From Blastocatellia bacterium (lineage in GTDB: Bacteria > Acidobacteriota > Blastocatellia > RBC074), in the NCBI GenBank assembly GCA_031423535.1, contig JANPFS010000166.1, positions 1 to 44,292 on the forward strand: 44,292 bases of DNA. Direction: 5' to 3'. The translations under genes and the position numbers were made by a program. Position 1 is the first letter of the stretch, and each line of letters opens with the position of its first letter. Shown here piece by piece: positions 1,910-31,700 of the stretch. A model generated the notes under the pieces. That model saw only the letters and a program-made list of their open reading frames with translations, made no database searches and was not told the DNA's origin.

Positions 1910-2827
1910 ATGGAAACAGCAATAATCTCAGTTATTAACTTAAAAGGTGGAAGTGGGAAGACGACTTCGACGGCAAACTTAGCGGCTGCGCTAGGACTGA
2001 TGGGTCACAGTGTTATGGTTGTTGATGCTGACCCGCTGGGTAATTTAACGACAAATATTGCTAAGAGCTACCCTGCTGAGCGAAATCTGCTTCGAGCGCT
2101 TGAAGAGAAATTGCCATTAGAAGCTGTAATGGTGGAGACGAATTGTGAGAACGTGTGGTTGGTACCAGGTTCGTCAGGGATCGCATCCTTTGCTAAACTA
2201 CAGGAGCCAGAGCCAAATCGTCATCGGCTTTTTGCGGACTTGTTTAATACGGATATGATACAAAAATTCAGATTCCTGATAATTGATAACTCTATTAGCC
2301 AGAATGCACTGTTGGCCACTGCAATTTTGGCAAGTGATTACTTCTTAGTACCACTGGAGGCTAAAGTTTTCTCAAAGAATGGTCTCAGAGATGTTTTTGG
2401 GTATGCTTACGGGCTGGAGCCAGAATCGCTAGAGTGCCTTGGGTGCTTTGTTGCTAATTTCATGAGTGTGCCCGCACAGGAAAAAATGAGAGAGCAAATC
2501 CAATATATTACGAAGTCTGCTGATGTGCCGTTTTTGGGAGTGCCGGTTCCCTTTTCTCGTTTTGTTGAGACTTCCGTGCAGAACGGGACGAGCTTGTTTG
2601 GGGTGGTAGGGCGACGGCGGACGGACACAGACAGTGTCACACCCAGTTTACGTGAGCAGTACGGTCATAACCCTGCTGCGGCTGCTTATTTGATTTTAGC
2701 AGAAGATGTTGCTAAGCGAAGTAAGGGAAAGCTGCGTGGGTATAAACCGTTGCGCAATAATGGAGCAAGTTCGCTGAAAATGTTGAATTTAGCAATGGAA
2801 GATTTTGGTGAAGACAGTGAGATATAA
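1910..2827 (+). CDS. parA: ParA/Soj-family partition ATPase
   Basis: Deviant Walker A in VINLKGGSGKTTSTANLAAAL, followed by VVDADPLGNLT. Immediately followed by a ParB-like gene. Confidence 0.9.
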   Translation: METAIISVINLKGGSGKTTSTANLAAALGLMGHSVMVVDADPLGNLTTNIAKSYPAERNLLRALEEKLPLEAVMVETNCENVWLVPGSSGIASFAKLQEPEPNRHRLFADLFNTDMIQKFRFLIIDNSISQNALLATAILASDYFLVPLEAKVFSKNGLRDVFGYAYGLEPESLECLGCFVANFMSVPAQEKMREQIQYITKSADVPFLGVPVPFSRFVETSVQNGTSLFGVVGRRRTDTDSVTPSLREQYGHNPAAAAYLILAEDVAKRSKGKLRGYKPLRNNGASSLKMLNLAMEDFGEDSEI

Positions 2828-2829
2828 AT

Positions 2830-3783
2830 ATGAAAGCTAATGTAATTGTTGATAAATTAAAAGAAGAAAGTGAAAAGGACTTAACCGTACTTCTAAGGGC
2901 GAAGTCAAAAAAACAGACAGTGGAACCTGTAGAAATTGTTACCTCTACACGGTTAGAGAAACGGACAAAGCTCGAAATCGCCTTGGCTCACAACAGACCT
3001 GTTGTTATTGAACTGGCTGATATGGTGGTAAAAGGGAATGTCCGCGAAGAAGTGGATGTAAATGGTAAAGATTTTCGTAATTTAGTGAATTCAATAAAGG
3101 AAAATGGACTGGAACAGTCACTCCTCCTGGCATATAAATCTGTCGGAGAGTCCGACTATGAGTTAATTGTTGCTTGTGGGCAACGGCGTAAACTGGCTTT
3201 AGAGGAATTAGGCGTTGAAAAGGCTCCCTGTCTTTTGAAGCGATATACTACCGATGTGGCAATGATCTCGTGGGGGTTGGAGGAAAACTTAAACCGCAAA
3301 GATCTTCACTTTTTAGATTTAGGGAAAGCGTATGCTGATTTGAATACAGCGGGTCTGAGTCAGATGGAGATTGCTATGAGGTGGGAAGATGTCACTGGTC
3401 ATGGCACAAACATGATTTCACGAGCAATCACATCTTCAAAATTCCCTGAACATGTAAAAAGGAAAATAAGAGATAATCCTCGAATTTTTAAGGTTTCGGT
3501 TATCTGTAATCAACTGGCAGCGAATCGTGGAACTAAATATGCTGATGATATGGATTTGGAGGCAGCCGTAAATGATTTGATCCGTGGTGCAGGGCGAGTG
3601 ATACCGCAAACGGATAAGAAATCTATAGATCAAGTCGAAACTGCCATGAATCTTCCAGCGGGATGGTTAAAAGGGAAGGCTAAAGGAGATAGGAGTTCTG
3701 GCAGAGTTTTGATCAAATGGAAGTCGAAAACTGAATTCGAGGAGCTACTTAGAATTTTGAACGGGCCAAAATCGCAATCTTAA
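2830..3783 (+). CDS. parB: ParB-like partition / nuclease-domain protein
   Basis: ParB N-terminal box YELIVACGQRRKLALEELG (GxRR). Starts 2 bp after the parA stop. Confidence 0.8.
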   Translation: MKANVIVDKLKEESEKDLTVLLRAKSKKQTVEPVEIVTSTRLEKRTKLEIALAHNRPVVIELADMVVKGNVREEVDVNGKDFRNLVNSIKENGLEQSLLLAYKSVGESDYELIVACGQRRKLALEELGVEKAPCLLKRYTTDVAMISWGLEENLNRKDLHFLDLGKAYADLNTAGLSQMEIAMRWEDVTGHGTNMISRAITSSKFPEHVKRKIRDNPRIFKVSVICNQLAANRGTKYADDMDLEAAVNDLIRGAGRVIPQTDKKSIDQVETAMNLPAGWLKGKAKGDRSSGRVLIKWKSKTEFEELLRILNGPKSQS

Positions 3784-6508: not shown

Positions 6509-6728
6509 GGTTGGCTGAGAAATGAGCTGTGCGCCCTGGAAATGACCCGGTGATTGGATGTTTGGAGATGTTTGGAGGGAATTATGGTGGGTGACGCTAG
6601 GTTTTGGAACTGCCTGTGCAATTGGGGATGATCATTTGCAGATTTCGATGCAAGCGGTGTACCATGCTGAAGGCTTTTTGACAGGAACGGTTGGTGATTC
6701 CTGGCTGAAATCGCAAAATTACGACCAA

Positions 6729-6804
6729 TTGGTCGCCTATTTTGGGATGATTTTTGGATGGAAAATATGAGAGACAATCCAGGTCAAAAAAGAGCGATTT
6801 TAGC
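6729..6804. repeat. 76-bp direct repeat R1, copy 1
   Basis: TTGGTCGCCTATTTTGGGATGATTTTTGGATGGAAAATATGAG...AGGTCAAAAAAGAGCGATTTTAGC recurs at 7108-7183, an offset of 379 bp. The copies differ by one mismatch plus a 9-bp variable patch. Confidence 0.9.
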
Positions 6805-6816
6805 TAAAAATACCAG

Positions 6817-6941
6817 TGTTAGTTTTTTTTACAGTTACTGTGTAAGAAACTAACATGTTGTAAAAAAAGTTAACACATGTTGTTAGCTTTTTATACAGCA
6901 ATTGTATAAAAAGTTAACAATGTGTGTAATAAAAATTAACA
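6817..6941. repeat. six copies of a 15-17-bp motif TGTAwwAAAAnyTAACA in mixed orientation, about 22-bp phasing
   Basis: Copies lie at 6817-6833 (inverted), 6841-6855, 6859-6875, 6881-6897 (inverted), 6903-6919 and 6925-6941. Examples are TGTAAAAAAAGTTAACA, TGTATAAAAAGTTAACA and TGTAATAAAAATTAACA. The context is AT-rich and non-coding. Confidence 0.85.
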
Positions 6942-6978
6942 GTGATATTTGCCGAAAACCAGGGTAAAAAGCACACCC

Positions 6979-7107
6979 AAATCACACTCCACTCAGCAAC
7001 GAAAGCGCCTCGAACTCAGTAGGCGGCATATCGAAGATATATTCATAAATACCTTTGCCGGTTGGCGCGTCTTTGAGGAGGAAATCTTTGTTGATTCGCC
7101 CCGCGTA
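6979..7107 (-). pseudogene. duplicated 3-prime fragment (last ~42 codons) of gene 7362..7730
   Basis: 129 bp at 6979-7107 match 7359-7487 with one mismatch (7090 G vs 7470 A). The copy has no upstream coding continuation. Confidence 0.8.
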
Positions 7108-7183
7108 TTGGCCGCCTATTTTGGGATGATTTTTGGATGGAAAATATGAGCGAAGATTTAGGTCAAAAAAGAGCGATTTTAGC
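7108..7183. repeat. 76-bp direct repeat R1, copy 2
   Basis: See 6729-6804. It directly abuts the duplicated gene fragment. Confidence 0.9.
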
Positions 7184-7190
7184 GAATCCC

Positions 7191-7289
7191 ATTTTGAAAA
7201 TTTTGAAAATATCGCTCAAAAGCGTTGCAAATTTTGAAAATATCGAGTAAATATCGCTCAATATTTGCAATATCGCTCAATATTTGCAA
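7191..7289. repeat. short tandem and dispersed repeats (TTTTGAAAATATCG twice; 19-bp perfect tandem TATCGCTCAATATTTGCAA twice)
   Basis: TTTTGAAAATATCG occurs at 7201-7214 and 7232-7245. The 19-mer occurs at 7252-7270 and again, immediately following, at 7271-7289. A related ATATCGCTCAAAAGCGTTGCAA lies at 7209-7230. Confidence 0.85.
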
Positions 7290-7316
7290 AACAGTGCAAA
7301 TATTGCAAAATATATC

Positions 7317-7356
7317 ACCTGTTATTTGAAGCTAAAAACAATCCCAAATAACAGGT
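7317..7356 (-). terminator. hairpin just downstream of the stop of gene 7362..7730
   Basis: 12-bp arms ACCTGTTATTTG (7317-7328) and CAAATAACAGGT (7345-7356) with a 16-nt loop. The stem is AT-rich, so it would be a weak intrinsic terminator at best. Confidence 0.35.
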
Positions 7357-7361
7357 AAAAA

Positions 7362-7730
7362 TCACACTCCACTCAGCAACGAAAGCGCCTCGAACTCAGT
7401 AGGCGGCATATCGAAGATATATTCATAAATACCTTTGCCGGTTGGCGCGTCTTTGAGGAGGAAATCTTTATTGATTCGCCCCGCGTAGCAGTCCCCCATG
7501 CCTACAACCTTGCCCAGATCGTACTTCTTCCTCTTAATTGTGACCTGTTGCTCAGAAACTGTGGCTATTAGGACATCGCCGCGAGTTTCCCAGCCGGTCA
7601 CGGTATGCCAGGCACGAAGCTCTTCTGCGTCCAGTTTGATGTGTAACTTTCCATCAAGCGCCTGAAATCCTCTGATGGGACCAATCGCCAGTTGTGTGGT
7701 GTCGTTTTCTTGAATTAGTAAATATGCCAT
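7362..7730 (-). CDS. hypothetical protein (122 aa)
   Basis: ORF track. An AGGAG Shine-Dalgarno lies upstream (minus-strand TAGGAGTGAGGAATG). Confidence 0.6.
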   Translation of the reverse strand: MAYLLIQENDTTQLAIGPIRGFQALDGKLHIKLDAEELRAWHTVTGWETRGDVLIATVSEQQVTIKRKKYDLGKVVGMGDCYAGRINKDFLLKDAPTGKGIYEYIFDMPPTEFEALSLLSGV

Positions 7731-17527: not shown

Positions 17528-19033
17528 ATGCAAAATGTAGCGATCTATCTCTTGAGTTTGTCTCTCCTTTGCGGTGCAGCAATTGGGCAGGCAAAGAAAC
17601 AAAAGGCTCCGACTCCCAAGCGAGATCCCATTGTGGCGGTCGAGCAAGCGCAAGTCAGAGCGTATCAATCAGGCGATGTCCGGGTGGATGTTGTCACCAA
17701 CGTTTCGCCGACCATTCAATTGGGAATGGCACAGAGCGCCTTCATCAACGTAGAATTGCCTGCGAATGACCGCATCTTTGCGGTTCATTCCGGCGATAAC
17801 TCGCTCGTCACCTTTGACGAGACTTTTAAGAATCGCAAATATCATTTCGTGATTCTACGACCCGGCACCGGCTTTAATGCGCCGGAAAAAGGACACGGTA
17901 ATGGGGTGACGGTGGGAATCCAAATGGACAGCGGCATGTTTCTGATGCTGGTGATTTATCCCGTCAAAGCGGTCAGTGAGAACGCGCATCGCTGTGTGGT
18001 CAATTATGACCCAGCCATGATTATTGATTCGCGCGCGCGCATGAACCTGCAAGTGGGATTGGTGGATGGCGTACCGCGGGTAGCTCCTGTCAAAGAGAAA
18101 GGCAAGACAACCATACTCGAATCCTCGCCAGAAGATGAAGCACCTGCCCCTGTCGAAGAACGGAGAGTCCCAGTCGCGACTGTCCCAGACGCATCTGTCC
18201 CAGTCGCGATTGTCCCAGTCGCGACTGTCCCAAATACGCCTGCTCCTGTCGCTTTAGTTCAAAATCCGACCCTGCCAGCTCAACGACCGCAGGCTCAACC
18301 GACGCCCGTTGCTCCTCTTCAGCAAGTTGCGCCAGCGCCGCAACCGCGTATCAAACCAACCGTCGTGGCAACGTCGCCATCCATCAAGGTTGCGGTCAAC
18401 CCAACAGCGAAAGTACCTGTCCCGCCGCCCTTGAAAGTTCCAGTCGCATCTGTTCCGGTAGTCGCGCAACCTGTTGCTCAGCCGTCCATCAATTCGGCTT
18501 GGGGCGTCACGACGACGGATGTTCCCGCTAAATCCAAAAAGCGATGGCCCTGGTCAAAAGACAAACTGCCGGTCGAGGGTGAGGAAATTCTGGCCCAGCA
18601 AGCGATCCTGCAAGCAAAACCCGTCCAAACGGCTAAGAATATCGTGGCTGGTCGCACCTCTTTCTCGGCACAAGGCCGTGGCTTACTGGTTAACGCATGG
18701 GAAGGTGTAGGAACGCCCGATGTCTTGTTGCTATACGTCGAAGTCCGCAATATTTCCAAGCAGGGCTTAAAACTCATCGGCGACCAGCCCGATGTCTTTA
18801 TCGAAACGTTCGGCACCAAAAAGGCGAGACTCAACATCGAAAACGTCGCTGCTAAAACGGTTAAAGGCTTTCCTGACAAAGGCTGGATGAATCCCGGCGA
18901 CGTGAAGGTCATGGAAGTTCGCTTCACACGTCCGACCCTTGGCATTCAGCAACGGCTCAAAGTCAATGTCGCGCAATCCCTCGCTGCCGATGACCCGGTT
19001 GTGATTGACCTGACCGCGAATGATCGGAAATAG
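17528..19033 (+). CDS. trbG: VirB9/TrbG-like protein with a Pro/Val-rich insertion
   Basis: Signal peptide. Lies between the trbF-like and trbI-like genes. The central region VPVATVPDASVPVAIVPVATVPNTPAPV... contains the CAGTCGCGACTG palindromes. Confidence 0.5.
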   Translation: MQNVAIYLLSLSLLCGAAIGQAKKQKAPTPKRDPIVAVEQAQVRAYQSGDVRVDVVTNVSPTIQLGMAQSAFINVELPANDRIFAVHSGDNSLVTFDETFKNRKYHFVILRPGTGFNAPEKGHGNGVTVGIQMDSGMFLMLVIYPVKAVSENAHRCVVNYDPAMIIDSRARMNLQVGLVDGVPRVAPVKEKGKTTILESSPEDEAPAPVEERRVPVATVPDASVPVAIVPVATVPNTPAPVALVQNPTLPAQRPQAQPTPVAPLQQVAPAPQPRIKPTVVATSPSIKVAVNPTAKVPVPPPLKVPVASVPVVAQPVAQPSINSAWGVTTTDVPAKSKKRWPWSKDKLPVEGEEILAQQAILQAKPVQTAKNIVAGRTSFSAQGRGLLVNAWEGVGTPDVLLLYVEVRNISKQGLKLIGDQPDVFIETFGTKKARLNIENVAAKTVKGFPDKGWMNPGDVKVMEVRFTRPTLGIQQRLKVNVAQSLAADDPVVIDLTANDRK

Positions 19034-22569: not shown

Positions 22570-24945
22570 ATGAAGGATTGGTTTGGCCGCCTGTTAGTAA
22601 GGAACTCCCTGATGAAAAACCTGTTTGAGATTATCAAGTTTGTCCTGTCCTTGTATCGGAAGTACAAGTCGCCGGTCACCGTTGCCAACCAACTCGATTC
22701 GGTCTATCCGATTCCACGCCCAACGGATACGCCTTTCCTGCCGCCCTATCACGCGATCCAGGCGCTCATCAGCATTGGCACCAGAATGTTTACCATTGGG
22801 GTGGCGAGTTGCTTGGGCGTGCTGGGTTGGTGTGGCGCGTTTTACTTTTTACGACTGGACTTTTTTGGTGTGGCAGGCGTGGTGCTGGTGTTTGTGTTGC
22901 TTGGCACCGTGTTGATTGCCTACGCCGAAGCCAAGCAATTGCCGCTGATTTACGAGCGCACACAACAACGCGTGTCACAAGGCACAGCCTTCTGGATGGA
23001 ACCAGAAATGATGGAGGATTCCGGCATCCTGTTTGATAGTGATGACGAGGGGTTGGACGCTGTGAATCATTTGGTGGCAAATTTCTTCCGTTTCTTTGGC
23101 GTGAAAATGGAACGGAAAGCCAAAGATAAGGTTCTGCCGCCGGATGAGGGATTTCTGGAAATTGGGCGGCACGGCTCGAAAACGATTGGCCTCCCCTGGA
23201 ATTTATGTTCCCGCCATTTGGTGTTGTTTGGGAAAACTGGCTCCGGCAAATCGAAGACGTATTTCCTCAATATGATTCGGCGCTGGGCGGGAAAGGGAAG
23301 TGTGATTGCGCTTGATCCCAAAGGCGAACTGATGTGGCAAACCGGCAGCTCGTTCAAGAAAGTCTTTCGGTTCAATCTGGTAGACCCGCTGGATAGCGAT
23401 CACTGGAACTTCATTCCCGATTGCCAGGATTCGGTAGTGGCTGCGGATGTCACTTCCATCATGTTACAGCTTGACCCGACGGCGAAAAAGGGTGGCGGGA
23501 TGGATCCATTCTGGGAAAACGCAGAAGCGCTCTGCTTGTGGTCGCTCCTGATGTTTCTCTCGACGCGCACCAATCCTGACGGTTCAGGGATGATCCCTGC
23601 CGATATTTCGCGCTTCATTTCTTCGCCGGATGACTTTGCCACTCCCGAACAGATCGAAGAAGCACGCCGAATCGCTGATACCTCACCCAGCAAAAGCTTC
23701 AATGTCTCGCTCATCAATATTCTGTTGTTGTTTGTGAGAAGTGGCTTGGGGAAGGAAATCAAGAACGCCTGGGGGATGTTCACGACCATCAAGCAGGAAG
23801 GCCACGCCAACGTGTTGCTGGGGTTGGGCGTCAAGGTGCGCAGCTTTACGGTTCCCACCGCGCGTGATTTAGCACAGCCCATTGGTAATAAAGACAATGC
23901 GCGCTGGATTACCTTCAAGGATTTGCGCCAACCGGGAACTGCCATCTTCCTCATCATCAACGAAGGCGATACCGGCACGTATCAAGCTTTGCTCGCTACC
24001 TTTATGGGAATGGCAACTCAGGCCTTGCGCAAGTCGGGTATGCGCGACGACGAAGCGAAAGTCCTCTGTTTGTTTGATGAAGCCGGCAACGTCCCGATCT
24101 GGGGCTTGGGTGAAATGCTCGGCCTCGGTCGTGGTCGTAAAATGGCGGTGGTGTGTTGCTACCAGACCGTCAATCAACTGTTCAAGCAGTACGGCAGTGA
24201 TGGTGGTAATGCCATCCTTGAATTGTTTACGAATTACATCTTTCTGCCCGGTGCGACCAATCAAACGGCGGAACTGGCCACAAAGCTCCTGGACAAGGTC
24301 ACCACTTGGTCACACACCGCTGTGGATGTGGTCGGTGGTTCCGGGGGTGACAATGAGCGCTCGTCTGAAATTGGGCGTGAGCTGATGACCACAGGAGAAG
24401 TTCGCCAACTGGTAGAATATCGGCAGGCCCTGGCAATTGTCGCAACCTTTCCTCCGATTAAGATGGCCTTCCCGAAATTTGCCTTTGATCCCAAGCGTCC
24501 GAAGTTTGAGATCAAAACTGAGCCGCGCGCCGCCCTGCCAGCTACATCCATAAGCATCGAAGAAGATGTCTATCCTGAACAAACGGAAGTTGCGTCGGAT
24601 GCTGTTGCGCAGTCAATTCTCCCACTCGCAAGTGTTCCAGTCGCGACTGTTCCACTCGCGACTGTTCCAGACGCGTCTGTTCCAGCCGTTGCTGTGTCTG
24701 TCGTAACCGAACCTCCTGCTCCGGTTGTTCCGGTGGTGGTTCCAATGGTACCCGCATCATCTTCTACACCGGTTGATTATTTTGACCAGCTTGGTGGAAA
24801 GGTTGCTGCTTCAGCAACAACCTTATCTAGTGACGATAGCTCTTCGGGGTCGCGGGATCGGCAACGCGGGCGTCTGATCAAAAAAACTCCCCAATATGAC
24901 AACATTGATCAGGAAATGATCGACCGGGACCCGACGTTGTTGTAA
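22570..24945 (+). CDS. traG: type IV coupling protein (VirD4/TraG family)
   Basis: N-terminal TM helices. Walker A in LVLFGKTGSGKSKTYFLN and Walker B in VLCLFDEAGNVP. The C-terminal Pro/Val-rich tail contains the CAGTCGCGACTG motif. Confidence 0.85.
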   Translation: MKDWFGRLLVRNSLMKNLFEIIKFVLSLYRKYKSPVTVANQLDSVYPIPRPTDTPFLPPYHAIQALISIGTRMFTIGVASCLGVLGWCGAFYFLRLDFFGVAGVVLVFVLLGTVLIAYAEAKQLPLIYERTQQRVSQGTAFWMEPEMMEDSGILFDSDDEGLDAVNHLVANFFRFFGVKMERKAKDKVLPPDEGFLEIGRHGSKTIGLPWNLCSRHLVLFGKTGSGKSKTYFLNMIRRWAGKGSVIALDPKGELMWQTGSSFKKVFRFNLVDPLDSDHWNFIPDCQDSVVAADVTSIMLQLDPTAKKGGGMDPFWENAEALCLWSLLMFLSTRTNPDGSGMIPADISRFISSPDDFATPEQIEEARRIADTSPSKSFNVSLINILLLFVRSGLGKEIKNAWGMFTTIKQEGHANVLLGLGVKVRSFTVPTARDLAQPIGNKDNARWITFKDLRQPGTAIFLIINEGDTGTYQALLATFMGMATQALRKSGMRDDEAKVLCLFDEAGNVPIWGLGEMLGLGRGRKMAVVCCYQTVNQLFKQYGSDGGNAILELFTNYIFLPGATNQTAELATKLLDKVTTWSHTAVDVVGGSGGDNERSSEIGRELMTTGEVRQLVEYRQALAIVATFPPIKMAFPKFAFDPKRPKFEIKTEPRAALPATSISIEEDVYPEQTEVASDAVAQSILPLASVPVATVPLATVPDASVPAVAVSVVTEPPAPVVPVVVPMVPASSSTPVDYFDQLGGKVAASATTLSSDDSSSGSRDRQRGRLIKKTPQYDNIDQEMIDRDPTLL

Positions 24946-25513: not shown

Positions 25514-25539
25514 GAAATTGAGAGCTTTAGTGTTAAGAG

Positions 25540-25567
25540 AAAGGCCACTCAATTGTAAGTGGCCTTT
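25540..25567. terminator. bidirectional terminator-like hairpin
   Basis: AAAGGCCACT (25540-25549) / AGTGGCCTTT (25558-25567) with an 8-nt loop. The flanks are T-rich on both strands. Confidence 0.6.
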
Positions 25568-25595
25568 CTCTTTGGGTGGGATGCCATAGGACGCA

Positions 25596-25652
25596 TTACC
25601 GATTATACATGTTGTCGTAATGACTTGCATGCACTGCTGCCGCTGCAATTTC
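25596..25652 (-). pseudogene. orphan C-terminal remnant homologous to the tail of the 1253-aa protein
   Basis: Encodes EIAAAAVHASHYDNMYNR-stop, against EIAAAVAQASHYDDMYDR-stop at the end of gene 28674..32435. Frame and stop position are the same. It has no upstream coding continuation, and track ORF 25596..25799 otherwise overlaps the methyltransferase gene. Confidence 0.65.
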
Positions 25653-25674: not shown

Positions 25675-26892
25675 TTATGAAGCTGCCGAAATTGTAATCT
25701 CAAAAGGAATTTTCTCGCTGAATGGAATCGGCGAGTTTTGACCTGAATATCCCAAGTGGGATGCAATCGGTGATAAAGCGTGCTGTGAAATCCAGTCAAT
25801 CACAGGGACGCAGACGGCATCTGCAAATCCAGTCATGGCTTCATTCCGTGACCTGCGAATGCTGAAGTCTGGTACGCCTTGCAGACGGGCATATTCTACC
25901 GGCGACATCCATCGCATCTTTATATTTCCGCCGTCTATAATCACAACAATTTGTTTTCCGCTACCGCCTTTGGCTGTTCGTAAGCAGCCTGCCAGCCCGT
26001 CAAATCTTATTTCCGACCTGGTTTGCCCCTCACGAATTCGCCGAAAGATCGTCCCTACCCATAATTGTTTTGTGGCAAGCATTTTTTCAACTCGCTGATG
26101 GTGCAATTCACTCATCCTATCAAAATGCTTCTTAACTTCAGCCTCTGACCACCAATCTTGATTCGCGCCAAGGTCAATTACCGACTCTAAGTTTCTTTGT
26201 TCTGATAGTGGTTCTGGCAGGTTTAATGCTATCCATCCAGTAGGAAGTTTGATGGTGTGAAATGCCTCAAAAAGGCGAGGCGTACAGGTTTTTTTTCTCG
26301 CGTTAATACGCTCGCCCCATAGTTGTTGGCGACCTTCAAGAATCGCACTGGGGGGAATTCCTTCTTTCAAAATCCCCAGGATGAAGAGACGAGGACGGCT
26401 TTGGGGGGTGAAATATTTTGCGTCAACAATAAATGAGTCGAGAAAATAACCGAGCCTTGAAACGGCTAGACAGGTTTCTTCAAAGTCTTTACCCTTGTTT
26501 CCAGTTAATAACCCCGGGACATTTTCCAGTATCACTATGGGAGGCATTTTATTCTCCAGGTTTAGCCTTCTTAAAACCTCAAGAAAGCCGAACAAGGTAG
26601 AAGAATGTTCGCCCTTCAAGCCTCTCATATGGCCTGCAAGGGACAAGTCAGTACAAGGAAATGATGCTGTAGCCAGTAAGGCGCGTTGTTTGATACGCTC
26701 TAAAATCCTGTTCGTTTGCCAAATGTCTTCGAGATGAAAGTAGGTGGCATCGGAGAATTCATCCAGGTACATAGCCTGTTTTTTCTCTGAGATGTCATTG
26801 GCATAAAGACATGACCACTCAGACAAACGAAGCCCGTGATGAACCAATCCGATTCCGGCAAAAAACTCCAAAAATGTTTTCTCAGTACCCAT
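25675..26892 (-). CDS. DNA (cytosine-5) methyltransferase
   Basis: C5-MTase motifs are present: I FLEFFAGIGL, IV SFPCTDLSLAG, VI ILENVPGL, VIII TPQSRPRLFILG. The C-terminal motif is GFADAVCVPV. Sampled lines count about 38-45% GC, against about 63% in the adjacent iscB. Confidence 0.9.
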   Translation of the reverse strand: MGTEKTFLEFFAGIGLVHHGLRLSEWSCLYANDISEKKQAMYLDEFSDATYFHLEDIWQTNRILERIKQRALLATASFPCTDLSLAGHMRGLKGEHSSTLFGFLEVLRRLNLENKMPPIVILENVPGLLTGNKGKDFEETCLAVSRLGYFLDSFIVDAKYFTPQSRPRLFILGILKEGIPPSAILEGRQQLWGERINARKKTCTPRLFEAFHTIKLPTGWIALNLPEPLSEQRNLESVIDLGANQDWWSEAEVKKHFDRMSELHHQRVEKMLATKQLWVGTIFRRIREGQTRSEIRFDGLAGCLRTAKGGSGKQIVVIIDGGNIKMRWMSPVEYARLQGVPDFSIRRSRNEAMTGFADAVCVPVIDWISQHALSPIASHLGYSGQNSPIPFSEKIPFEITISAAS

Positions 26893-26997
26893 TCACGGCC
26901 TTCTTGAGTTTTAAGAACTGTTTATCAAAAACCGCAAAAGAAAACTCTCTTCTTCAGGGGAGAGATGAATTTTGCGCGCACCTCCGGTGCGAAATTA

Positions 26998-28317
26998 TTA
27001 GTTCAGTAAAGAGCGGATGCCTTTTGCGTAGCGATAGAGTTGTAATTGCTTGGCAGGCGCATGAATCTTGCCTGCCAGTAAAACGGTCTTGCCGTAACTG
27101 TGCGTCCCAACGACGACCTGCTTTTGCCCCTTGAAGATTACGACATCGCCCGGTTGAATGGGGTAGCGCTGTTTGCGACGAGAGATTACGCCTTTGCGTG
27201 TTTTGTGTCCCCTGTATTGGCGCAAGTCCTCGCTATTGAGGTTGTGATTGCGGGTGTGTCGTCCACTGGAAAGTTTCTGCCCCGTCGCCGATTTTCCGGT
27301 TCGCGTGTCGAGATACTTCGCGTCCCTGAAGGTGGCGAGCGAGCGGTTGTTCCGTCGTCGCTGTTGGTAGTAGATGGTTGGCACGCGTGGCTGTCCAGCT
27401 TTCCCCGTGATCGCAAATGCGTCGTTCGCCTCCGTTCTGGGTAAGCCCAGCGTGAGGCGGTTTCGTTTGGTCTGAAAGCCAAACACTTCGGTCGCACCGG
27501 TAGCTGTTACCAGTTTGCGGCGTATCGTGGTCATGAAAGTTTCGGCGCGGAAACTCTTGACCGTTGGCTCCCACCCGAACAAGCAGCCGCCCGGTTGATG
27601 ATTGGCCGGTCGGTGACAGTCGGTGCAAAGCGTGACGAGATTGCCGGGGCGGTCGCTTCTGTCCTGCTTCCAGAAGCCCAGATGGTGAACATGTAGGATG
27701 AGCGGCAGCTTTTTGTTCTTACAATCAGGGTTTTGGCACTGGCCGCGATCCCGAAACAAAACGTACTCGCGCAGGTTCTCAAACGAAAACTGTTCGCCTT
27801 GTTGATACCCGACTCCATTGACGTCGGGGGACTTGAGTTGCTGAATATCAAACGAAGCTGTCTGAATGTTCTTGTGGGTGATCGGCAGAATCTTCTCGAC
27901 CTGCCCAATGATCCGCAAATGCGAATCGTGCTTGTGTTGCAGCGAAGGAGCCAGTTGTTCCGCCCGTTTGCCCGTCTCGGAATGACCGGGTTGGCGATAG
28001 CGGGTCTTGTTGCCGCGTCGGGTGGTCCGGTACATCTGGCGTGAAGTGATGCGCTCGCTCACATCAGGATCAAGTGCGACCTCGGCAGAGAAGACTTCGG
28101 CTTGTTCGGTTTGGGCCGAAAGGCCGATGCTCGTATAGCCGCTCTTGACGTTGAGCGTGATAGGTTGCGTATAAGACGTGGCCTCATACGTGAGTTGGAT
28201 GGTGAAAGGTTTGGTTTGCAGAACGCGCGCGCGCCCGGCTCGTAATTGATGGCGCACCCAGCCATGCCGTGTGGTCGGCATGAGAGGCGAGCCATCCTGG
28301 TTCAGGACATAAATCAT
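26998..28317 (-). CDS. iscB: IscB (OMEGA-family RNA-guided HNH/RuvC protein) with substituted RuvC catalytic positions
   Basis: The expected IscB segments are all present. PLMP domain: MIYVLNQDGSPLMPTTRHGWVRHQLRAGRARVLQTKPFTIQLTY. Arg-rich bridge: RRGNKTRYRQP...LAPSLQHK. HNH block: CQNPDC...LHVHHL...GNLVTLCTDCH. RuvC-III-like: LGLPRTEANDAFAI. C-terminal tail: IQPGDVVIFKGQKQVVVGTHSYGKTVLLAG. Confidence 0.85.
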   Translation of the reverse strand: MIYVLNQDGSPLMPTTRHGWVRHQLRAGRARVLQTKPFTIQLTYEATSYTQPITLNVKSGYTSIGLSAQTEQAEVFSAEVALDPDVSERITSRQMYRTTRRGNKTRYRQPGHSETGKRAEQLAPSLQHKHDSHLRIIGQVEKILPITHKNIQTASFDIQQLKSPDVNGVGYQQGEQFSFENLREYVLFRDRGQCQNPDCKNKKLPLILHVHHLGFWKQDRSDRPGNLVTLCTDCHRPANHQPGGCLFGWEPTVKSFRAETFMTTIRRKLVTATGATEVFGFQTKRNRLTLGLPRTEANDAFAITGKAGQPRVPTIYYQQRRRNNRSLATFRDAKYLDTRTGKSATGQKLSSGRHTRNHNLNSEDLRQYRGHKTRKGVISRRKQRYPIQPGDVVIFKGQKQVVVGTHSYGKTVLLAGKIHAPAKQLQLYRYAKGIRSLLN

Positions 28318-28619
28318 AAAAATACCGAGAAGACGAATCTTCTAAAGCAGGTTGAGTTGTCTCAACCAGTGGGTCCACTTCGCCCGGTTCGTTCTGCTTG
28401 TGATTGCCGTAGCCACTTCGCCTACCCAAAGCGATGTTTAGGATACGACCGAGCCAACGTCGCTGGTGGAGCACGACGTTACTCGATGACAGGAAGAACG
28501 TTGTTGTGGTCATAGCGGCCGGTGAGGCCTGCCACAAAGGCTAATCAAGTGGGCTTGATCTATACCAAGCCTCGTCCTTTAGGACGGGGTTCTTGACTTT
28601 AGTTTCGTGAACCTTGCCA
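28318..28619 (-). ncRNA. omega-RNA-like structured leader upstream of iscB
   Basis: 302-nt non-coding gap directly 5-prime of iscB, where IscB omega RNAs are encoded. At least six local hairpins: 28328-28343, 28351-28366, 28456-28480, 28504-28537, 28544-28559 and 28570-28589. Ends are not mapped. Confidence 0.6.
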
Positions 28620-28730
28620 AAGAGAAAGGCCGCTCACTTGAGCGGCCTTTCTTCTTGGTGGGATGCGGTAAAACTACCGGTCATACATGTCATCGTAATG
28701 ACTCGCTTGCGCGACTGCTGCGGCAATCTC
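28620..28730. repeat. diverged direct repeat, copy B (terminator plus the true 3-prime end of the 1253-aa gene)
   Basis: See copy A. Homology starts exactly at the outer edge of the omega-RNA-like region. Confidence 0.75.
28625..28650 (-). terminator. intrinsic terminator of the 1253-aa gene
   Basis: 11-bp stem AAAGGCCGCTC / GAGCGGCCTTT with a 4-nt loop. On the minus strand it is followed by CTCTTTGG. Lies 24 nt after the stop codon. Confidence 0.7.
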
Positions 28731-31700
28731 CATCCGTTCCGGTTCAGCCGCTGGCTCCCGCTCTTCGGCTTTGCTCTCTCGTTCTTCCGTGACCCCGCGT
28801 TCCTCTTTGGAATCATCCGAGAAACGATCCTCCCGTAAGGCCGGCTGATTGGTCAGGTTGTGATCCGTCACTTCAGCAATCTGCGCCGGTCGTTCCGTCT
28901 CCACTCGCTCCGTCGAACGCTCCTGACTGTGATCGCGTTCGGTGGCCTGACCGATCAGCGTATCCAGCTTTTCAAACCCGCCATAAAACTTCTCGCGCCC
29001 GACCAGCTCGGAGTGCTGGTATGCCTGCAACATCTCGCGTTCTTGCGGTGTCGCCTGCTGAAGTGCCTGCGCTTGGAATTCCCGATTGTCGGTGAGTCCG
29101 CGACTCTCAGCGACGGCACTCGTCCGGGCGGTATCTGCATGAGTGAATGCCTCACGCAGATATTCCTTACTGCCTTCGGGGAGTGCCATCTGATCCAGTT
29201 TGCCATTGAACTCGCGGCTGTCCACTTTTCCCGCAATGTGATCCTGAATCATCGGCACGAGCGCGTCTTTGTTGGCCGTGATCGCTTCCTTGTAGCCAGG
29301 CTCCTGCATCCCGTTCTTCCAGGTATTTGTCCATTCGGTGCGGGTGGCAATCGCTCCATTCGCTTGCCCACGCTCTTCCGCAACCCGCTCGACAATCTCG
29401 CTTTTGTGTCGGTTGAGCGCGTCCCGCGCATTCATCGCATCCTGCTGATATTCCTTCATTGTGTCTACTTGTCGGAACACTTGCTGTGCTGCCGGGTCTT
29501 TCTCCGCCAAGTTGTCGCCGCGCGCTTCTGCTGTATCTCGGCGTTGATGAATGGTGTCAGGCACGGTGGTTGGCCAGGTTTCCCGCGAGATTTCTCTGGC
29601 CAGGAATTCCTTGCCTTGGGCGTTGTCGCGAACGGTCACTTTCCCGTCTTCGATGATGCGAACCTGGGCGACATAATCAGCTTTGGGATCGGCTTTCGCA
29701 TCTGTGACGGATTGTGCGTATGTCTGGTAACTCTGACTCTTGACGGGCACTGCGCCATACAACCGCTCACCGGACTCTCGTCGCATGTGCAGGTCTTCGG
29801 TGATTTCTTTGGCGACAGCCTTGACGTACAACTGTTCGTGGTATGTGAGCGCAGGCTTGCCGTCCGCCTTGCTTAATGACTCTTCCAGCCGGACTCCTAA
29901 CGTTTGGTGATCGCGCGATTCATCCAGCCTTGCGACCGCTTCGCGCGCGTTCGGTGAGGCTTTATGGGGCGCTGCCAGCAACGCCTCGGCTCGCATCACG
30001 TTCACTTCCTTGTAGATAAAATCCTTCTCCGCTGGATTGAGCTTGACCACGTTCTCGCGCACTTGCCATGCGACTTCTGTCGGACTCAAGGGTTTGTTGA
30101 GATCTGTGACTGGATTCATAATTACCGAAAAACGGCTCAGCTTTCCAGTATCCGGCTCTCCATTGCGATCCCGATTTTCGTCCAGTGCGCTCATGATTTT
30201 CTGGACAGGTTCAGACCGTTCTGTTTTCCCTTCGAGCAGATTGTTGACCATCTCTCGCTTCGTCGCATGGGTCATCAGACCGCTGTGCAGCGCCTGTGTC
30301 ATCTCGGGCGTAAATTCGTGTGTATGCGGCCCTGGCAGACTCACTAACGCCCGTTGCTCGGTACTGAGTTTCTGATGCGCAGATTCTTCGCCGTCTCGCT
30401 GTTTTGCTGCCAGCTTCGTGTTGAAATCCAGGATTATTTTTGCGCTTTCTGCGACCCCTTCTGGTGTTTTCTGTTCGGTCATTCGCTCCAGCGCACGATG
30501 GAAGACGGGCGATTGATTGCTGTTTCGCACGTATAAATCTTCCCGCAACACCGTACTCGCGAATTTCTCGGTGAATTGTGGCAAGGTTTGATATTCCGCC
30601 TTGATGTCTGCTCGATCTGCACCATTCGCCTGCGCGCGATCAATGGCCTGCAGGTGATCGCCGTATTTGTGCCCATTCTCTTTCGCCAGAAATGCCTCCA
30701 GTCCCGGATTGTCCTTGATCCTGAGCGCGCGCTCGGCACCGATCTGATTGTAGTCCTGCACATAGCCTTCCACCTGGGATTGTCCGGCGCGAGAGGTCTC
30801 CCATTGGGTGTTGGGAGCCAGCAACAATTCCTTGTCCCGCGTGCTAATTTGCGGATTCATCATCACTCGTTCGGCAAACGCGAACTCTCGCTCGGCCCCA
30901 ATCGCACTCGTACCCATCTTGACGCGATCTGCGTACATTTCCCGAAACTGAGTATGTTCTCCTGCCGGCGCTGTGACTCGTTCAGCAAATTCTGCGGCTC
31001 GCTCTAAGTAGGTTGAAGATGCTCGTGTGTTTAGGTTCGGGCTGTCTGCCATCGCTCGCAATTGTCCGCTATCCAATCCCGCCGCGCGCGCTTCTGTTGC
31101 TACATTGCGATACTCGGCTTCGCCCATCGCTTTCAGGTGGTCGGTGAAATCTACGCCGCTTTTGCTTGTGAGGTAGGCTGAATGCTCTAACAATGTGGCC
31201 GCGCTCTTTGGCGCTAACGATGACCCCGCAATTTCTTGTCCTAATCGTTCAGAATCTGCCGGTGAGAGTTGCCCTTGCGCATACTGGTCATAGCGCTCGG
31301 AGAACTGCTGCCCTTGCTCCGACGCTAAAATGTTTTTTACTTCCACCTGTTGATCCAGATACCGTCCCGCAAACTGCTGCACGTTTCTGGCTGCGGCTGT
31401 TAGTTCGGCGACCGACATCCCCGCTTGCAATGCCTCCGTCATCCGTGGCATCGCAGTTCCAACCAAATACTTGTCGGTCAGAATCTGGTCGTTCCCCGGC
31501 AAGCTGGGCTGCTGATCCAATCCCCCAATCCGAATCGAACTGGTATTGAAGATCGCCCCGTCGCGCGCCAAATCTAAATCCTGTTCTTCATACCGCTCGT
31601 CGGCCATCTCTAACATCGTGTTGTCAACGATTTCAAATTCATCCAGATTACTGCTCGCACGTTCGGTCTCATTGGTAAAGATTTCTCGTTCCTCGCCCTC

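Follow-up and report, generated by a model that had tools for sequence, protein, structure and literature searches.

A probable IscB omega RNA with a predicted guide beside, and not on, a duplicated terminator, encoded with an IscB that lacks most of its RuvC catalytic residues

On the joint evidence of a covariance model and of related loci, the leader upstream of iscB in the 44-kb stretch of Blastocatellia bacterium DNA that we analysed (44,292 nucleotides, hereafter the window) is a genuine but ordinary IscB omega RNA. The explanation that we favour with high confidence as a whole is that a non-autonomous IscB element of the IS200/IS605 type (about 26926-28597) has its omega RNA encoded at positions 28318-28613 of the minus strand, and that this element would have inserted between the terminator of a gene for a 1253-aa protein and a cytosine-5 methylase gene. 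The RNA would be composed of a 5' guide (GGUUCACGAAACUAAA, at 28598-28613), a 229-nt HEARO scaffold and two 3' hairpins that extend almost to the iscB start codon, and would most likely be produced by transcription entering via the co-oriented upstream gene. IscB and its RNA would then recognise the empty site through a guide match followed by the left-end motif (GGTTCACGAAACTAAA and directly after it ATAAA, in the iscB sense), and the enzyme, judging from its sequence and from the engineered D61A and D59A nickases, would nick the target strand only. The terminator and the site at 25536-25551, both of which a preliminary description had connected with the guide, would be uninvolved and belong to a duplicated gene-tail-plus-terminator module around the cassette of methylase and IscB. 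The parts of the RNA and the stems within it are the following.

28598-28613, minus strand: predicted omega RNA guide, 5'-GGUUCACGAAACUAAA-3', 16 nt; a version of 20-24 nt reaches 28617-28621
28369-28597, minus strand: omega RNA scaffold (HEARO, RF02033), found by cmscan over model positions 1-211, the full length of the model
28318-28368, minus strand: 3' extension of the omega RNA and iscB leader, with hairpins at 28351-28366 and 28328-28343 beyond the Rfam model
28328-28343: stem AGAAGA/TCTTCT
28351-28366: stem GTTGAG/CTCAAC
28456-28480: stem AACGTCG/CGACGTT
28504-28537: stem TTGTGG/CCACAA, which encloses GGCC/GGCC
28570-28589: stem CCTCGTCC/GGACGGGG

The preliminary description had read this leader as a structured omega RNA on the minus strand upstream of iscB and had proposed a covariance-model scan as a check. 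That scan (cmscan) matches 28597-28369 of the minus strand, 229 nt, to HEARO (Rfam RF02033) at 88.6 bits with E = 9.5e-17, which is 5.6 bits over the gathering score of 83. HEARO is the RNA family that subsequent work identified as the IscB omega RNA (Weinberg et al. 2009; Altae-Tran et al. 2021). We adopted the definition of Meers et al. (10.1101/2023.03.14.532601) for the location of an omega RNA, namely upstream of the IscB ORF, less than 500 bp away and co-oriented with it. The match has this location, its model end at 28369 being 52 nt upstream of the iscB start codon at 28317 with both on the minus strand. No further HEARO was found at E <= 1 by a covariance-model scan of 24-30 kb, and thus neither a second copy nor a remnant near 25536. 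Among the related IscB loci scanned, 11 have a HEARO in the equivalent place, and the sequence comparison with relatives agrees with the covariance model in identifying the leader.

Folding gives the minus-strand RNA 28613-28318 an energy of -105.5 kcal/mol (z = -4.4), and none of 200 shuffles was as stable. All six stems described earlier can be read off the sequence at their positions, and four of them are stems of the HEARO consensus. A fifth, ATCAAG/CTTGAT at 28544-28559, is present as sequence, but its arms do not pair with one another in either the family consensus or the minimum-energy fold. Both of these re-pair them instead, 28544-28549 with 28592-28597 as the P1 closing stem and 28554-28559 with 28565-28570.

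The closest relatives of the locus, obtained by protein search and contig look-up, come from other assemblies: L013 (82% protein identity, iscB at 473-1819) and L014 (68%, iscB at 1090-2424). Between the window and L013 the RNA region is identical at 259 of 276 positions (94%) while the synonymous sites of iscB differ at 42%, which argues that the RNA itself is under selection. The two hairpins beyond the model (28351-28366 and 28328-28343) are retained in L013 with substitutions confined to the loops, and are replaced in L014 and in the relatives of about 50% identity by other, still-pairing sequences. Meers et al. (10.1101/2023.03.14.532601) remark that RF02033 is without downstream structural elements, and the two additional 3' hairpins are consistent with that remark.

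The guide of an IscB omega RNA is located just 5' of the scaffold and derives from the DNA outside the right end of the transposon. The preliminary description had started from the same rule, and the covariance model and the relatives agree with it; the edge to which it is applied has moved. Three independent lines place this edge at 28597/28598. G28597 is the start of the covariance-model match, it is also the first base of the P1 closing stem, and it is where the similarity to relatives ends. In both L013 and L014 similarity to the window starts exactly at G28597, with none beyond, and in an alignment of 12 loci columns 1-28 are unconserved and a conserved GTCAA begins at column 29, with the same G as its start. 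The change from conserved scaffold to unconserved 5' guide at 28597/28598 is therefore sharp: the scaffold adjoining the guide is 94% identical to L013, and the guide region is unlike that of L013 or L014.

By this evidence the right transposon edge is 28597/28598. The predicted guide is the reverse complement of 28598-28613, GGUUCACGAAACUAAA, which is flanked on one side by the terminator of the 1253-aa gene and directly on the other, at its 3' end, by the first scaffold base, itself paired in P1. A length of 16 nt is in keeping with OgeuIscB, in which about 17 nt of the guide are engaged and 16 nt are enough (Kato 2022, PMC9640706). One HEARO nuclease prefers a 24-nt guide (Goltsman 2022, PMC9755519), and with a guide of such unusual length the outermost bases (to 28621) would at most touch the foot of the terminator hairpin. 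At <=3 mismatches the 44-kb window contains no second site for the 16-nt guide; its weaker matches there are chance hits with 4-6 mismatches and seed-only hits. Viral contigs contain three exact 16-mers with unrelated flanks, by our estimate no more than expected by chance. The minimum-energy fold pairs the guide's initial 7 nt (GGUUCAC, 28607-28613) with GUGGACC of the conserved scaffold (28375-28381, minus strand). This pairing is probably coincidental, an artefact of folding, although it could occlude the guide.

The preliminary description had instead set the edge of the element at 28619/28620 and the guide at about 28620-28640, on an arm of the terminator, and had noted that 16 nt within it recur at 25536-25551. 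The sequences that bear on this are listed here.

28617-28658: bidirectional terminator hairpin of the 1253-aa gene, with 20-nt arms that are 90% complementary; not omega RNA
28620-28730: direct repeat copy 2, comprising the terminator and the last 19 codons of the 1253-aa gene (ending in EIAAAVAQASHYDDMYDR and a stop), by local alignment and translation
25535-25652: direct repeat copy 1, comprising a second terminator and an orphan remnant of a homologous gene tail (EIAAAAVHASHYDNMYNR and a stop), and including 25536-25551

The near-match between 28621-28636 and 25536-25551, with one mismatch, is real. When the 16-mer is searched in the 44-kb window at <=3 mismatches, it is found only in the four arms of two hairpins, and four matches were reached in none of 100 shuffles. 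Local alignment extends the similarity to a direct repeat, 25535-25652 (118 nt) against 28620-28730 (111 nt), in which the copies are about 80% identical. Both copies fold into strong hairpins (-31.6 and -28.5 kcal/mol), and the hairpin at 28617-28658, with -31.6 kcal/mol and z = -6.1, is outside the edge of conservation. The gene tail in copy 1 has no gene body attached. Together the copies bracket a 3-kb cassette of the cytosine-5 methylase and the IscB element. The recurrence of the 16-mer is thus attributable to the homology of two gene-tail-plus-terminator copies and not to a guide. A short match, CTTTAGT (25525-25531 and 28597-28603), seemed to extend the direct repeat as far as the scaffold; it needs a 13-nt gap, six of its seven bases are outside the element, and about 0.2 such matches are estimated by chance, so we rejected it as not significant.

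The explanation in which the edge is at 28619/28620, the guide is the reverse complement of 28620-28640, fixed on a terminator that occurs twice, and IscB acts on 25536-25551 would draw on the recurrence of the 16-mer with a single mismatch, on the start of the direct repeat at 28620, and on the fact that a guide of at least 24 nt would reach 28621. We consider it barely credible. The scaffold begins at 28597, 22 nt away from 28620; IscB engages only about 17 nt next to the scaffold; conservation ends at 28597 and not at 28619; the second site is accounted for by a homologous module of about 115 nt that includes coding sequence; and the true 16-nt guide has no other match in the window at <=3 mismatches. 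The covariance model and the relatives already contradict it. The guide had been placed 22 nt too far from iscB through mistaking the edge of the flanking repeat for that of the element, and the second option in the preliminary description, that the real guide lies elsewhere in the leader, turned out to be the right one. Once the transposon edge is placed correctly, the apparent coincidence of guide, terminator and second site vanishes. The lesson is that the edge of a flanking repeat is not that of an IscB element; to place the latter one should use the first paired base of the scaffold and the point at which conservation ends.

On the other side of iscB, the preferred explanation predicts a left end of the element and a motif beside it.

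26926-26997, minus strand: left end, a two-tier hairpin with an outer stem 26932-26939/26970-26977 and an inner hairpin 26945-26964
26921-26925, plus strand: predicted transposon-adjacent motif TTTAT (ATAAA in the iscB sense), from comparison of flanks

About 70 nt downstream of the iscB stop are common to the window, L013 and L014, with compensatory changes in the inner hairpin, and the sequences diverge thereafter. The same design, an outer stem, TTCATC, the inner hairpin, about 19 nt and then an unrelated flank, is also present in L002, L005, L006, L008, L013 and L014. Just past this end the flanks of six loci, otherwise unrelated, read ATAAAC, ATAAAA, ATGAAA, ATAAAA, ATCAAC and ATGCCA. For GstIscB the motif TTCAT (top strand) adjoins the left end (Meers et al., 10.1101/2023.03.14.532601), and we placed the left edge at about 26925/26926, give or take about 5 nt, since the recurring flank resembles that motif. 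An AT[AG]AA-like flank is accordingly a candidate transposon-adjacent motif for this group of IscB, good to about 5 nt. These edges would delimit an element of about 1.67 kb (about 26926-28597) with the methylase outside it, and the predicted insertion-free junction, in the iscB sense, would be ...CTTTGGCAAGGTTCACGAAACTAAA joined directly to ATAAACAGTTCTTAAAACTCAAG...

Searches of plasmids, genomes, metagenomes and viral contigs turned up no insertion-free allele. A search via homologues of the 1253-aa protein led to a sole relative, in L015 (59% identity), without the cassette of methylase and IscB, and homologues of the methylase, the best of which is 71% identical (Acidobacteria), included none close enough.

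The subterminal hairpin at the right end (28570-28589) is 8 nt from the edge, and that at the left end (26945-26964) is 19 nt from the edge as placed above. Subterminal hairpins at both ends together with precise ends in differing contexts, the pattern of IS200/IS605 elements, are common to seven loci. Among the 36 ORFs scanned with Pfam none encodes a Y1 TnpA. A tnpA is near only about 1.5% of iscB genes (Meers et al., 10.1101/2023.03.14.532601), and its absence, being usual for iscB, is compatible with non-autonomous membership of the IS200/IS605 group.

Each of the three close copies (window, L013 and L014) has precise ends, the contexts being unrelated to one another, and each lies 34-91 nt downstream of a co-oriented gene. 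This arrangement fits the orientation bias of IscB elements, with transcription entering from the upstream gene, that was described by Meers et al. (10.1101/2023.03.14.532601). Near 28600-28760 of the minus strand we found no sigma-70-like promoter; a TTGGCA at 28615-28620 is without a usable -10. A strong bidirectional terminator between the upstream gene and the guide is unusual for such an element. We count this terminator directly upstream of the guide and the lack of a promoter against our explanation, as bearing on the amount of omega RNA. The narrow margin of the HEARO score, and the searches that yielded neither an empty site nor a TnpA, weigh on the same side.

The protein partner of the RNA is encoded at the following position.

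26998-28317, minus strand: iscB, 439 aa, with PLMP, RRXRR/RuvC and HNH; K58, Q152 and E296 are replacements and D299 is kept

Pfam assigns RRXRR (1.4e-49) and HNH (2.3e-5), PLMP is at residues 11-14 and the CxxC pairs are present, and the protein has the PLMP and the split RuvC/RRXRR with an inserted HNH that mark an IscB. It matches solved IscB structures in the PDB, with a phmmer E = 4.5e-32 to OgeuIscB. The RuvC catalytic residues of OgeuIscB are D61, E193, H340 and D343, and its HNH histidine is H247 (PMC9640706). We read the RuvC residues from alignments to OgeuIscB and to 13 and 120 homologues. The catalytic tetrad is not intact: K58, Q152 and E296 occupy the positions of D61, E193 and H340, and only D299 (D343) is kept. 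By comparison, D, E and H are present at the first three positions in 115, 114 and 115 of the 120 nearest homologues. The HNH residues H211, H212 and N226 are intact here and kept in all 120. At least one substitution in the RuvC tetrad is seen in 11 of the 120 (for example P0014, P0020, P0021, P0040, P0047, P0056 and P0077), and of the two nuclease sites in the IscB family RuvC may be the one more easily dispensed with.

Both nearest relatives also are without the RuvC-I aspartate, the RuvC positions being K, Q, D, D in L013 and N, E, H, D in L014. The RuvC-I codons (GAY to AAY to AAG) are consistent with the aspartate having been lost just once, ahead of the split between the three copies, and the precise ends of these copies in three contexts imply that the element has moved after this loss. 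All three iscB ORFs are intact. The dN/dS ratio of the window against L013, which has both K and Q, is 0.19 at a dS of 0.62, and against L014 it is about 0.09. Judged by these alignments and rates, the RuvC cutting site is naturally dead and the gene is under purifying selection.

One could take the system for a decaying relic in which the RuvC site is dead, the RNA is stuck behind a terminator and nothing works. In favour of this are the replacement of three out of four RuvC catalytic residues, the lack of a detected promoter, the absence of a TnpA among the 36 ORFs scanned and a HEARO score near the threshold. A relic, however, would hardly be expected to have an intact ORF of 439 aa, intact HNH residues, a dN/dS of 0.19 against a relative that shares its RuvC changes, and an RNA conserved at 94% beside a synonymous difference of 42%, nor three copies with precise ends in three contexts, which point to movement after the RuvC-I aspartate was lost. 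We regard a relic as improbable.

Our preferred explanation treats this protein as an IscB homologue by descent, from which double-strand nuclease activity is not expected. With RuvC replaced and HNH intact, a nick on the target strand without a double-strand break would be the outcome. The activity would then be that of a target-strand nickase, by analogy with OgeuIscB D61A and MG35-1 D59A, in which a D-to-A change at the RuvC-I aspartate gives a working HNH nickase (PMC9755519). The protein could also be a binder only. We tentatively suggest, as a quite possible though somewhat doubtful reading, that the present IscB, together with the two relatives nearest to it, makes up a small natural clade of RuvC-dead, HNH-intact proteins that belong to mobile IS605-type elements, have a conserved omega RNA, are still under purifying selection and act as RNA-guided target-strand nickases. 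In the literature searched we found no description of natural RuvC-dead IscB clades, which is weak evidence of novelty.

The surroundings of the element bear on a further alternative. Directly beyond its left end is the cargo gene listed here.

25675-26892: cytosine-5 DNA methylase gene, with a GC content of 45.5% compared with 51% for the window

A nuclease-impaired IscB might have been domesticated as an RNA-guided binder or regulator, a counterpart of TldR that is possibly tied to the methylase or to plasmid functions. It is RuvC-dead yet under purifying selection, and it is located on a conjugative element beside a cargo methylase. The methylase is nevertheless absent at L013 and L014, both of which have other neighbours, so that it is unlinked to iscB there; the guides of the three copies are wholly different and both transposon ends are retained; the guide has no other match in the 44-kb window; and the fully conserved HNH catalytic residues would be needless for a pure binder. 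Domestication therefore seems to us very improbable.

Searches for near-identical DNA in plasmids, and for the 1253-aa protein in plasmids by tblastn, returned no match, and when genomes, metagenomes and viral contigs were searched for close IscB loci, the outcome was only relatives of about 50% or none. The only relative of the 1253-aa protein (59%) is in L015 (10001-23780), a mobile element of similar kind that has a MobL relaxase. Immediately downstream of the homologue, L015 has a defence block of DUF4062, an MmeI-like methylase-nuclease and AbiE. The presence of these defence genes at the equivalent spot suggests that the place downstream of the 1253-aa gene is a cargo hotspot.

Several repeats were observed elsewhere in the window. 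A 15-nt tandem repeat (GTCCCAGTCGCGACT and variants) occurs at 1103-1150, 18167-18252 and 24622-24685, within three different genes (an ORF at 710-1609, an ORF at 17528-19033 and the C-terminus of the type IV coupling protein at 22570-24945), where it encodes pentapeptide repeats such as VPVATVPDASVPVAT. Positions 6728-7487 contain a tandem duplication of about 380 bp (6979-7107 and 7359-7487 are 99% identical, 6728-6807 and 7107-7186 are 91% identical) with a perfect 19-nt tandem inside it (7250-7289), and 64-nt repeats and palindromes make up an AT-rich block beside it (6817-6941). ParA/ParB are encoded at 1910-3783, as in a plasmid-like element, and the region 6728-7487 may be its origin or iteron region.

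For the question as it was posed little changes, the leader being one more IscB omega RNA. It is the effector that is worth following up: it has lost the RuvC D, E and H, has kept HNH and its RNA, has moved since the loss and is constrained. Provided that it nicks, it would be a ready-to-use natural nickase of small size (439 aa). It would also allow a test of whether the homing model of these transposons needs a double-strand break. Should the tentative clade reading be true, the clade would be the mirror image of IsrB, and the benefit that IscB brings to the transposon would require no more than a nick, or just binding, at the empty site.

Compared with known systems, the RNA is most like the HEARO/IscB omega RNA family, with which it shares a full-length match to the model, a position upstream of and co-oriented with an RRXRR plus HNH ORF, and a variable 5' guide beside a conserved closing stem. 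It departs from the family in that the score is close to the threshold, the TTGTGG/CCACAA stem carries a longer insert, the two 3' hairpins are its own and the partner protein has a dead RuvC site. As in ISGst of Geobacillus stearothermophilus (10.1101/2023.03.14.532601), the omega RNA is bounded by the right end, the element has no tnpA in cis and the orientation of the gene upstream of it, there are subterminal hairpins at both ends, and an AT-rich pentanucleotide is predicted beside the left end, TTTAT here as compared with TTCAT for GstIscB. Re-copying of ISGst is driven by the double-strand breaks that GstIscB makes, whereas the protein described here should not cut the non-target strand, and ISGst differs also in that only the present element has a strong terminator between the upstream gene and the guide. 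With the OgeuIscB-omega RNA complex (PDB 7UTN, 7XHT; PMC9640706) it has in common PLMP, the order of RuvC, bridge helix and HNH, and a guide directly 5' of scaffold G1; the protein is shorter, 439 aa compared with 496 aa, and has K58, Q152 and E296 in place of D61, E193 and H340.

IsrB and the engineered RuvC-dead IscB proteins (OgeuIscB D61A and MG35-1 D59A, PMC9755519) are likewise members of the IscB family that cut a single strand, as the protein here is predicted to do. IsrB keeps RuvC, misses HNH and nicks the non-target strand, which is the reverse of the arrangement here, and unlike in the engineered nickases the loss of RuvC is natural. TldR (Wiegand et al., 10.1101/2023.11.30.569447) is similar in being an RNA-guided nuclease of a transposon family with a naturally inactive RuvC under selection. 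TldR, however, has lost the transposon ends and has fixed guides against host promoters, whereas the present element retains its ends, has guides that vary from copy to copy and encodes an intact second nuclease site, HNH.
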